Assembly: GCA_029856155.1 (NCBI GenBank)
Contig: JAHQWL010000083.1
Location: 38,514-102,513, forward strand
Length of the DNA: 64,000 nucleotides
Reading direction: 5' to 3'
DNA from: Promethearchaeia archaeon
Lineage (GTDB): Archaea > Asgardarchaeota > Lokiarchaeia > Sigyniarchaeales > SOKP01
Shown: in pieces, positions 27,248 to 30,319 of the stretch
Layout: every line of letters begins with the position of its first letter
Numbering within the stretch: the stretch's first letter is position 1
Notes under the pieces: model-generated
What the model was told of the DNA's origin: nothing
The model's database searches: none
What the model saw: only the letters and a program-made list of their open reading frames with translations
Made by a program: the position numbers and the translations under genes

Positions 27248-28399
27248 ATGAAAAAATTAAATTTAGTAAAATCAGATGGAGAAACTTATTATATAAAAGG
27301 AAGGGGTATTCCTAAAGGATGTAAATACTGTCTTAAAGGAAGTAAGTTAGTTCTGTTTTTGAACGGTATCTGCCAGAAACCTTATCATTGTTCTTGGTAT
27401 TGTCCAATTTCAGAAGAAAGGAGAGGAAAAAATCTAACTTATGCTGATGAAATAGAAATAAGTACTAAACAAGAATTACTTCAAGAAATTTGTATGATTA
27501 AGGCCGAAGGAATGAGTATTACAGGAGGAGAACCACTTTCAGAACTAAATTTTGAAAAAACTATTGAATATATTAAATTTGTTAAGGTAGAAAAAGGAAA
27601 AAAGTTTCACATTCATTTATATACAAATGGTGTTGATTTTAATGAAGCTAAAGCGGAGGCTCTCTCGCTAGCAGGATTAGATGAAATTAGATTTCATCCA
27701 GCTAGAGAACATTGGGATCGTGTTGAAAAAGCTCTAAATAAACAGATTTCAGTGGGAGTGGAAATGCCAGTGGTTCCAAATAAAGAAAGTGAAGAAGATC
27801 TTGAGGACCTCATCCTTTATTTAGACAAAATCGGTGCAGATTTCATCAATTTAAATGAATTTGAATTCTGCTTTCCAAACAGCAAAGCTTTAAAGGAACG
27901 GGGCTTTCAATTGAAAAAAGGCTCCATTGCTTCTGTAGTTAATAGCCGTGAAACCGCTTTTCGTTTAATTCGTAAGTTAGGCTCAGAAGTTTCCATAAAA
28001 ATGCATTTTTGTTCAATTAGATCTAAAGATTATTATCAGTTAAAAAATAGATATTTAAGAAGAGCTAAAAATATAAGACTACCTTATGAAGTAATTACAG
28101 AAGAAGGTCTTATAGTTTTTGCTCAATTAGAAGGAGAAAAAAAAAAATTGGATAAGTTATATAATATTTTATTGTCAGATCTAAAAATATCTGAAAAATT
28201 AATATCATATAATCTTAAAAATATTAAAATGCCTTTTTATATCTCAATCAAAAACCAAATAACTGTTTTATTAGAAAAATATCAATTAGAAGCTTTTATT
28301 ATTGAAATGACACCTTTTAGACAATTGAAATATCAACAAATAACTGAAAAAACCCCAATTAAAGTTTTTAAAAAAGAACATGGTTATATTAATAACTAG
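27248..28399 (+). CDS. Radical SAM protein (archaeal family)
   Basis: GC.YC..G.K, C...HCSWYCP, ITGGEP, HLYTNG, DEIRFHP. Confidence 0.88.
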   Translation: MKKLNLVKSDGETYYIKGRGIPKGCKYCLKGSKLVLFLNGICQKPYHCSWYCPISEERRGKNLTYADEIEISTKQELLQEICMIKAEGMSITGGEPLSELNFEKTIEYIKFVKVEKGKKFHIHLYTNGVDFNEAKAEALSLAGLDEIRFHPAREHWDRVEKALNKQISVGVEMPVVPNKESEEDLEDLILYLDKIGADFINLNEFEFCFPNSKALKERGFQLKKGSIASVVNSRETAFRLIRKLGSEVSIKMHFCSIRSKDYYQLKNRYLRRAKNIRLPYEVITEEGLIVFAQLEGEKKKLDKLYNILLSDLKISEKLISYNLKNIKMPFYISIKNQITVLLEKYQLEAFIIEMTPFRQLKYQQITEKTPIKVFKKEHGYINN

Positions 28400-28844
28400 T
28401 AATGTAAATTTAAGAGATTTAAGAAAAATTGTAAATCTTGAACAAGAGGTTTTTAAAAAAAATGCATTTCCAAAGCCTCTATTGAAAAAATTAATAGAGA
28501 ACCACACGTTTTTTTTAAAATTAGAAATTGGTAAAATAAAAAGAAAATTAATTGGTTTTATAATAGTTATAAATGAAACAAAAGAAAGAACTAATATTAT
28601 TAATTATCTTATTAAACCCAATTTCCAAAATAGTGGATATGGTTCATATCTTCTACGGCATACCATAAATAAAATAAAAAAATTGAAGACTATCAAAAAA
28701 ATAGTATTAAATGTACAAATCAGTAATTCAATCGCGATTAAAATATATGAGAAATTCAAATTTAAAAGAAATCCATTAATTATAGAAAACTATTATCACT
28801 CTGGGGAAAGTGCGTATTTAATGGAACTCGATATTGATTCTTGA
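28380..28844 (+). CDS. RimI/Ard1-like GNAT N-acetyltransferase
   Basis: FQNSGYG acetyl-CoA motif, N..AI..YEK, NYY..GESAYLM. Confidence 0.85.
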   Translation: MVILITSNVNLRDLRKIVNLEQEVFKKNAFPKPLLKKLIENHTFFLKLEIGKIKRKLIGFIIVINETKERTNIINYLIKPNFQNSGYGSYLLRHTINKIKKLKTIKKIVLNVQISNSIAIKIYEKFKFKRNPLIIENYYHSGESAYLMELDIDS

Positions 28845-28938
28845 TAAACTAAAACTTATAAATAAATTCTATTATAATATCTGTAAATATCAATTTAATT
28901 ATTTTAGATCAATTTAAAATATAAGGTGTTAGTTAAAA

Positions 28939-29091
28939 GTGGCTCCAGTAGATAAAGAACTTCAAGAAGAAATTAAAAAAGGCGTTTCTTTGCAAAAAGT
29001 TGATGAAGAAGAGATGAAAAGAAGAGAAGAAGAGAAAAGAAAACGCATGGAAGAATTAGAAAAAGTCAAAGAAGCCTTGGGAGAGAATTAA
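28939..29091 (+). CDS. 50-aa WH2-like microprotein (not in ORF track)
   Basis: GTG start with AAGGTG upstream; MAPVDKELQEEIKKGVSLQKVDEEEMKRREEEKRKRMEELEKVKEALGEN; T-rich tract downstream. Confidence 0.7.
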   Translation: MAPVDKELQEEIKKGVSLQKVDEEEMKRREEEKRKRMEELEKVKEALGEN

Positions 29092-29245
29092 TTAGTTTTA
29101 GATATTTATTACTGCTAAATTTTATTATTTTTTATTTATTTTATTTTTGTTCAATTTTTTATTCTTTCTAAATTAAATTAAGCTTTTCTGTAAGAATAAA
29201 TTAAATTATTATAATAATAAACGCTTGTGGAGCCAGTTTTAGGAT

Positions 29246-30319
29246 TTGAAAATTCTGGATATTAATCAAAAACAAGGAGAGATCGCTGTTAAAATTGAAA
29301 ATCTCTATGACTTATGGACTCTTTATAACATTATTAATAAAGATGATGAGGTCTCTACTCTTACTCACAGAAGAGTCGTTCTTAAAGAAGGAACTAAAGG
29401 TGAACGTAAATTAATGAGATTAAAATTGAAAGTTGAAGATGTTTCCTTTCATGAATTTTCAAATCGGTTAAGAATAAAAGGCAAAATCTTAGAAGGTCCC
29501 GAAGATTTTGTTAGTTTTGGAACCTATCATACTTTTAATATAAAAGTATCTCAAAAGGTGACAATAATCAAAGAAAACTGGTTAAAACATGAAGTAGCCC
29601 GATTGAAAGAAACGTCCAAGTTCGAAACCAATTTTATTATTTTAATTACTGCAATTGAAACTGGTTTAGCAAATTTAGCATTGATTACAAATTTTAGCTA
29701 TAACAGAATTGCTACTATTAAAAAAAATATTCCTGGTAAAAGATATGAACAAACTTATCGAAATAAAGCTTTAGAGGAATTTTTTAGCGACATACTAAAA
29801 GTATTACTTGAAAATATTAAAAATACAAACATAGACTTACTCATTTTTTGTGGACCTGGGAATACTAAAGAACTTATTCTTAAATTCCTTCAAAAAAATC
29901 CTAATTTTAACTTTAAGGGTAATATTGAAATGTCTCATGCAAGTTCTGGTACTGAAAGTGCAATTAGAGAAACCTTAAAATCAAAAAAGTTAGCAAAACT
30001 TAAACATAAAATTAAAGTACTTCAAGAAGCTGAAATGATCGAAAATATAATGGCTCAATTTGCTAATGATGCTGATCTTATTGTTATTGGTCTTGACGAG
30101 GTGTCTAAAGCTTCTGAAAGGGGCGCGATCAAACAACTGTTAATAGCAGATCTGTTAATTAGAGGCTCTTCTAAAAAACACAAGTTAAAAATAGAAGAAA
30201 TTATTTCCAGTGTTGAAAATTCTGGTGGAGAAATAAATATTATGAGTACAGAGAATATCACAGGAGAACAATTGGTAAATTTAGGTTCAATAATAGGAAT
30301 TTTACGATATAAACTTTAA
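29246..30319 (+). CDS. pelA: Pelota (aDom34) ribosome-rescue factor
   Basis: DLWTLYNII, FHEFSNRLRIKG, G.YHT, IPGK, GILRY. Confidence 0.95.
   Translation: MKILDINQKQGEIAVKIENLYDLWTLYNIINKDDEVSTLTHRRVVLKEGTKGERKLMRLKLKVEDVSFHEFSNRLRIKGKILEGPEDFVSFGTYHTFNIKVSQKVTIIKENWLKHEVARLKETSKFETNFIILITAIETGLANLALITNFSYNRIATIKKNIPGKRYEQTYRNKALEEFFSDILKVLLENIKNTNIDLLIFCGPGNTKELILKFLQKNPNFNFKGNIEMSHASSGTESAIRETLKSKKLAKLKHKIKVLQEAEMIENIMAQFANDADLIVIGLDEVSKASERGAIKQLLIADLLIRGSSKKHKLKIEEIISSVENSGGEINIMSTENITGEQLVNLGSIIGILRYKL

Follow-up and report, generated by a model that had tools for sequence, protein, structure and literature searches.

The gene at positions 28939 to 29091 (+ strand) of the window, that is, the whole stretch of 64,000 nucleotides that was analysed, encodes a 50-residue microprotein which is a free-standing copy of a Lokiarchaeial protein module that also occurs in tandem arrays and in fusions with other domains. 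The module appears, from profile comparisons of its family, to be related in pattern to WH2 and beta-thymosin peptides, and its tandem form associates with Lokiactin in vivo in L. ossiferum, possibly indirectly. Binding of Lokiactin by the microprotein in the WH2/beta-thymosin manner is regarded as plausible but unproven and is put forward here with slightly less than even confidence.

The coding sequence consists of 50 codons with a GTG start and a TAA stop, its translation begins MAPVDKELQEEIKKGVSLQKVDEEE... and the N-terminus of the product is M-A-P. The frame, strand, length and sequence given by an earlier sequence-only reading of this DNA were confirmed, together with the two flanking features that it had pointed out. 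The Shine-Dalgarno-like AAGGTG was located at 28923 to 28928 (+), 10 nt 5' of the start codon, and is conserved in the orthologues as AAGGTG, AAGGAG or AAAGTG. The T-rich tract, which is made up of oligo-T runs, was located at about 29117 to 29169 (+), 3' of the stop codon and between the microprotein gene and Pelota, and its T-runs are kept in 11 orthologous loci; it is likely an archaeal transcription terminator. An A/T-rich, promoter-like block of 34 nt (28852 to 28885, +) with the TATA-box-like ACTTATAAATAAA...TATTATAAT lies directly 3' of the stop codon of the upstream gene, is nearly invariant in 11 to 12 orthologous loci while the intergenic DNA around it varies, and is taken as a putative archaeal BRE/TATA element.

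The upstream gene encodes a GNAT N-acetyltransferase (28380 to 28844, +; Pfam PF00583, E 3e-12), which is conserved as a neighbour throughout the order, L. ossiferum included, and the downstream gene encodes Pelota with eRF1 domains 1-3 according to Pfam (29246 to 30319, +); two radical-SAM genes on the same strand are also among the neighbours. Pelota carries a separate conserved promoter-like block upstream. Since the microprotein gene possesses its own promoter-like block, Shine-Dalgarno-like sequence and oligo-T tract, and Pelota its own block, the microprotein gene looks monocistronic, and an operon with Pelota was not supported. Adjacency to Pelota was found in 30 of 30 family f1 loci and in two f2 loci, Pelota being only 41-46% identical in the latter; it is lost in L. 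ossiferum, where adjacency to GNAT is retained (L064:882-1662). The Pelota start at 29246 to 29248 is apparently TTG, likewise in most loci of the same genus, and an ATG is aligned with it in more distant loci. It is speculation that the neighbouring GNAT might N-acetylate the microprotein at its M-A-P start, as in the case of acetylated thymosin beta-4.

About 157 homologues of 49 to 51 residues with 78-98% identity were retrieved by a word-indexed search of 5.8 billion proteins, and all 157 of these short homologues come from Loki-type MAGs. For 17 orthologues of identical length, pN/pS was 0.14 (pN 0.089, pS 0.62), with synonymous changes near saturation. When 30 syntenic loci were compared with the window, the microprotein was 75-92% identical, versus 57-89% for Pelota and 40-80% for GNAT. 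The ORF is a real and strongly conserved gene. The homologue of L. ossiferum, UYP46132.1 (NEF87_002417, annotated with 69 residues), corresponds to GNAMCCOK_02436, of which the mass in the published table equals the calculated one of 8.24 kDa, with the neighbours agreeing by mass and order. In proteome and IP samples GNAMCCOK_02436 is represented by 5 peptides that cover 43.5% of it (bioRxiv 10.1101/2025.11.30.690169, Supplemental Table 2). The homologue is translated in L. ossiferum, and the proposal of the sequence-only reading, which had been made dependent on conservation and translation of the frame, found support on both points. The same reading had described the gene as unannotated and too short for gene callers; several orthologues are already annotated as 'hypothetical protein' in NCBI and JGI records, and that description is therefore wrong in general.

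The WH2-like half of the window protein comprises residues 5 to 22 (28951 to 29004, +), with a short amphipathic helix (L8, I12), G15 and an extended segment L18-Q-K20-V21-D22. The motif L8-x3-I12-x2-G15-x2-L18-Q-K20-V21, which had been put forward as an L..I..G pattern followed by an LKKV-like segment, is present in the window, and the family shows little or no variation at its key residues, with I12, G15, L18, K20 and D22 invariant among the close homologues. It is followed by a charged E/K/R helix of residues 23 to 47 (29005 to 29079, +) with conserved R29, E32, K35, R36, E39 and L40, which ends with a hydrophobic face formed by M37, L40, V43 and L47 and is also predicted to be helical in the fused and tandem forms; the order of helix, extended motif and charged helix supports the anatomy proposed earlier. 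In 153 module instances, L18, the first residue of the LKKV-type segment, is kept in 88-100% and R36 in 94-100% across all module classes. These two residues are universal. G15, K20, D22, I or F at position 12, R29, E39 and L40 are retained in most cases; V, P or I occupies position 21, and many instances lack the basic residues. At the place of LKKV, the fused copies read LEKP, many tandem copies read LxxI with neither basic residues nor the glycine, and the L. ossiferum microprotein reads MKHV; the window protein carries one basic residue only in this motif, and other members carry LKKV itself. The core residues L18, G15, D22, R29, R36, E39 and L40 are all present in the window protein. The best-conserved half of the module is the charged helix with its invariant R36, which has no WH2 counterpart.

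To determine the distribution, 301 genomes drawn from the whole phylum were searched with the family profile. Within the window's family it matched in 63 of 68 genomes, and within the sister family in all 7; among the 301 genomes only two weak matches, both inside long ORFs, were found outside these two families. When 1.84 billion representatives were searched exhaustively with a profile, only 51 proteins were obtained at E<=1e-3. The window protein matches its own family profile at E 8e-29 to 8e-30. As the matches are confined to two families, the module belongs to one order of Lokiarchaeia and is no general Asgard feature; the conservation across Asgard genomes for which the sequence-only reading had suggested a search thus holds in that order and does not extend over the phylum. 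This restriction favours a lineage-specific invention or convergence over an ancestor of eukaryotic WH2, and the evolutionary claim is limited accordingly.

Longer forms of the module were not found when fused forms were sought by the word-based search, and were revealed by the genome and exhaustive profile searches. In the sister family, proteins of 479 to 497 residues are made of 8 to 10 tandem module copies (about 10 in 488 residues). For the tandem protein of L. ossiferum, AF2 gave helices of about 36 residues separated by low-confidence loops of 9 to 10 residues at GxxLxK[IV]D, with a pTM of 0.18; as modelled, this protein is a string of units with no packed fold, and a compact alpha-solenoid was unsupported at this pTM. 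In the window's family, about 50 proteins carry single or multiple module copies after a domain of about 125 residues. In structure this domain comes closest to the Odin and Loki profilins of actin complexes (E 3e-10 to 4e-8, TM 0.80-0.89, 25-29% identity), and its sole sequence match is Pfam Profilin. A Roadblock/LC7 identity of this N-terminal domain was rejected, profilins filling the top ranks and Roadblock appearing first at rank 39. The profilin-module fusions carry one to four C-terminal modules and then a further small domain. Elsewhere the module comes after Ras/Arf-like GTPases, LRR arrays and RHH domains. In L039:889-1857 (-), L040:1227-2285 (-), L038:455-1510 (+), P0166 and P0169 it either has a Ras/Arf-like GTPase on one side and an RHH domain on the other or follows an LRR array, and some LRR-module relatives continue with a zinc-ribbon/FYVE-like region or an RHH domain.

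In the genome from which the window comes, the narrower family profile A1 found one free module copy only and no other, and a weak profilin match at contig C82 proved to be no profilin fusion. A profilin-like subfamily of this genome is fused to a winged-helix domain and to a methyltransferase and also occurs in a 220-residue form. An ORF of 419 residues, with a profilin-like N-terminal domain and a TrmB-like winged helix (L078:1-1234, G000:C26:81916-83172, -), lies directly downstream of one of the two Lokiactin genes (L078:1501-2613) on the same strand and, from its domain order, could be an actin-sensing transcription regulator. The frame at G000:C2:4522-5850 (+), of 443 residues, joins the domain of this subfamily to a SAM-dependent methyltransferase-like region, and at G000:C34:33450-34109 (+) the domain is found in a 220-residue protein whose tail is unrelated. 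With such varied partners the profilin-like domain is promiscuous, and the fusions therefore weigh less as an argument for a link to actin than at first.

The likeness to WH2 was evaluated with Pfam WH2 (PF02205, gathering cut-off 23.1 bits) and with family profiles. The window protein had no Pfam WH2 or Thymosin match at E<=10, a PF02205 search of the whole genome gave nothing at the microprotein ORF, and the WH2 HMM check that the sequence-only reading had recommended thus turned out negative for this protein. Its sub-threshold Pfam matches (DUF7067, DUF3006 and the H-NS N-terminal domain) were discarded as compositional noise of a charged helix. Of 41 diverse members, only 3 had WH2 matches at E<=1; P0143, a member that shares the architecture and carries LKKV, scored 23.7 bits (E 3.6e-5), above the cut-off. 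P0143 and P0168 sit on metagenome contigs under 800 nt. When profile A3, built from the 41 diverse members, was searched against 177,635 distinct PDB sequences, rank 1 was 3m3n_W, a tandem WH2 construct of N-WASP (E 5.3e-4, with three stretches aligned in register), rank 2 was the Spire DDD (domain-D) construct 3mn7_S (E 0.015) and rank 10 was another N-WASP WH2, 2vcp_D. Profile A1 also matched the MIM WH2 peptide, and the window motif aligns in register with the WH2 motifs of N-WASP, Spire and MIM. Among named ESM-Atlas clusters, the nearest ones carry Thymosin (0.86), which is a lead only. P0168 (169 residues, on a 774-nt ENA metagenome contig) contains three tandem units, ...EVKKGITLKRTES, ...EIKKGPVLKKTMS and ...DIKKGVILTRTAS, which resemble thymosin/WH2 repeats, and matches the family profile at E 2e-4.

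A strict regular expression of the motif occurred 2 times in the six-frame ORFs of the genome versus 2.4 times in shuffles, and being at chance level it is therefore no evidence alone; it is the conservation of the residues that exceeds chance. The earlier description of the protein as WH2/beta-thymosin-like can accordingly be kept for the family, in which the resemblance is, by profile comparison, real (the top PDB matches of A3 being N-WASP and Spire, and P0143 passing Pfam), while the window protein itself stays below Pfam WH2 and Thymosin.

Evidence from the living organism is available for L. ossiferum. The tandem gene of L. ossiferum B-35 adjoins YggS (UYP47767.1), and its product, with a calculated mass of 56.45 kDa, corresponds to GNAMCCOK_04085 (56.41 kDa) by accession offset and mass. 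In the data set 'CoIP Lokiactin', GNAMCCOK_04085 has a log2(Lokiactin IP/IgG) of 4.53 with an adjusted p of 0.0021, with 44 peptides, 70.5% coverage and 366 spectra, and stands directly above Lokiactin itself (4.44), 2DGel1 being at 3.97 (bioRxiv 10.1101/2025.11.30.690169). The tandem form thus associates with Lokiactin in vivo, and since formaldehyde cross-linking was used in the co-IP, this association may be indirect. In the same experiment, the free homologue GNAMCCOK_02436 was not significantly enriched (log2 0.57, p 0.042, adjusted p 0.105) (bioRxiv 10.1101/2025.11.30.690169); washing could remove a monomer binder that holds weakly and exchanges fast. The authors of the co-IP discuss profilin, gelsolins, an ARF GTPase and BAR proteins, and the tandem protein is undiscussed (bioRxiv 10.1101/2025.11.30.690169). 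Three further proteins above Lokiactin in this data set are likewise undiscussed, namely GNAMCCOK_00333 (37.5 kDa, log2 9.2), GNAMCCOK_02751 (67 kDa, log2 7.7) and GNAMCCOK_04250 (20.6 kDa, log2 5.1) (bioRxiv 10.1101/2025.11.30.690169). In the genome of the window there are genes for two close Lokiactins, at G000:C4:51367-52479 and C26:83439-84551, and for three other actin-related proteins.

For the reading preferred here, in which the microprotein grips Lokiactin as WH2 and beta-thymosin peptides grip actin, we infer direct binding by the peptide, a binding site and an effect on polymerisation. The N-terminal helix (residues 5 to 14) would occupy the barbed-face cleft of an actin subunit, L18 and K20 would follow the front of actin subdomain 1, and the long charged helix would reach further over the subunit, with M37, L40, V43 and L47 adding contacts. 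The free peptide may then buffer or modulate the pool of actin monomers, or decorate filaments, and the tandem and fused forms may bring several actins together or bring other proteins to actin. Sequestration of monomers by the microprotein is a guess.

The module might instead be a general helix for docking or oligomerisation, serving another conserved partner or itself, by which diverse proteins are tethered to a scaffold while the free 50-mer works as a competitor or adaptor; its WH2 likeness would then be coincidental or convergent at best. The heterogeneity of the fusion partners (profilin-like domains, GTPase, LRR and RHH) and the promiscuity of the profilin-like domain fit such a helix, as do the universal L18 and R36 and the RExExxKRxEEL helix when these are counted as non-WH2 features, the chance-level regular expression and the free L. 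ossiferum form with no significant Lokiactin enrichment. This is the main rival of the preferred reading and is held somewhat less likely than it. Against the docking helix, the top PDB matches of A3 are WH2 constructs and P0143 passes Pfam WH2, the Lokiactin IP enriches the tandem form as much as actin, the AF2 models show neither repeat-repeat packing nor packing onto the profilin domain, and the heptad pattern is weak, being limited to M37, L40, V43 and L47.

A small protein associated with translation or the ribosome and working with Pelota in ribosome rescue or hibernation is improbable. Lso2/CCDC124 are charged helical ribosome binders with which it may be compared, and the extreme conservation and the highly charged helix agree with this comparison, but the link to Pelota is drawn from synteny alone (the 30 of 30 f1 loci and two f2 loci). 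Against it, the microprotein gene and Pelota each have a separate promoter-like block, with an oligo-T tract after the former, the adjacency is lost in L. ossiferum, none of the module fusions points to ribosomes, and the microprotein family occurs in one order whereas Pelota is universal in archaea. That the protein is a single-alpha-helix spacer, a charged filler or a chance ORF with no specific partner is scarcely credible, the conservation pattern having largely refuted it. Single alpha-helices do typically have such an E/K/R composition, and the weak Pfam matches to DUF3006 and the H-NS N-terminal domain are compositional, but the invariance of R36, E39, L40, L18 and G15 is position-specific and goes beyond composition, selection is strong as judged by pN/pS, peptides of the homologue were detected, and a free 50-mer has nothing to space apart.

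The nearest known counterparts of the module are WH2 (PF02205; N-WASP, WAVE, WIP, MIM, Spire, Cordon-bleu and VopL/VopF) and the beta-thymosins (PF01290; thymosin beta-4 and the ciboulot repeats). With WH2 it has in common an amphipathic helix, a glycine and an extended L-x-K-V at canonical spacing, as well as the occurrence in single form, in tandem or attached to signalling or actin-binding domains. Unlike WH2, it is often devoid of the basic residues (LQKV, LEKP, LxxI), its motif is followed by an invariant D and a conserved charged helix of 25 residues, its family is restricted to one archaeal order, and its actin binding is putative. The microprotein resembles the beta-thymosins in being a free peptide in the range of 43 to 50 residues, with an N-terminal helix, an LKKT-type segment and a C-terminal helix. 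In contrast to them, its second helix comes directly after the motif and is much longer and more charged, a Pfam Thymosin match is absent, and the free L. ossiferum form was not significantly enriched with Lokiactin. Arcadin-2 of Pyrobaculum is another short archaeal helical peptide, which binds the hydrophobic groove of crenactin and sequesters monomers, and its gene lies beside crenactin in the arcade operon; the microprotein, for which no sequence similarity to it is expected, is from a different phylum, would act on a different actin and is encoded by a gene that is not beside actin.

In the two-domain gelsolins of Asgard archaea, a WH2-like, LKKT-type linker (LVDV, LRRV or LKHV) runs along the actin surface in crystal structures (PMC9433394, PMC13716822). 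These structures display a barbed-face actin site common to rabbit actin and the Loki proteins, and Lokiactin conserves Asp25, the residue that the LKKT-like linker contacts. Both the linker and the module are Asgard LxxV segments, the L. ossiferum microprotein reading MKHV, but the linker consists of four residues between gelsolin domains, whereas the module is a self-contained unit of 46 to 50 residues with its own helices and no gelsolin domain. In trypanosomatid profilin, a WH2-like insertion adds to actin binding (PMC10907219). The profilin-module fusions likewise join a profilin fold to a WH2-like element; the trypanosomatid element is an internal loop of about 20 residues, whereas C-terminal modules of independent origin are found here.

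WH2 and thymosin peptides are seen as belonging to eukaryotes, or to pathogens that copied them, and to our knowledge the established Asgard actin regulators are profilins and gelsolin/cofilin-type proteins only; in the searchable literature, the sole Asgard element called WH2-like is the four-residue gelsolin linker. One form of the module co-purifies with Lokiactin as strongly as actin does, in data whose authors are silent on it, and the small size of the module suits the direct study of actin binding with synthetic peptides. It is possible, although we hold this broader view with more doubt than confidence, that Loki-type Asgard archaea evolved or inherited a WH2/thymosin-type module and use it as a free 50-mer, as an array of ten units and attached to profilin-fold and signalling proteins. 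If this is true, the module would join profilin and gelsolin as a third class of actin regulators in archaea, and the WH2-type grip on actin would have arisen outside eukaryotes.
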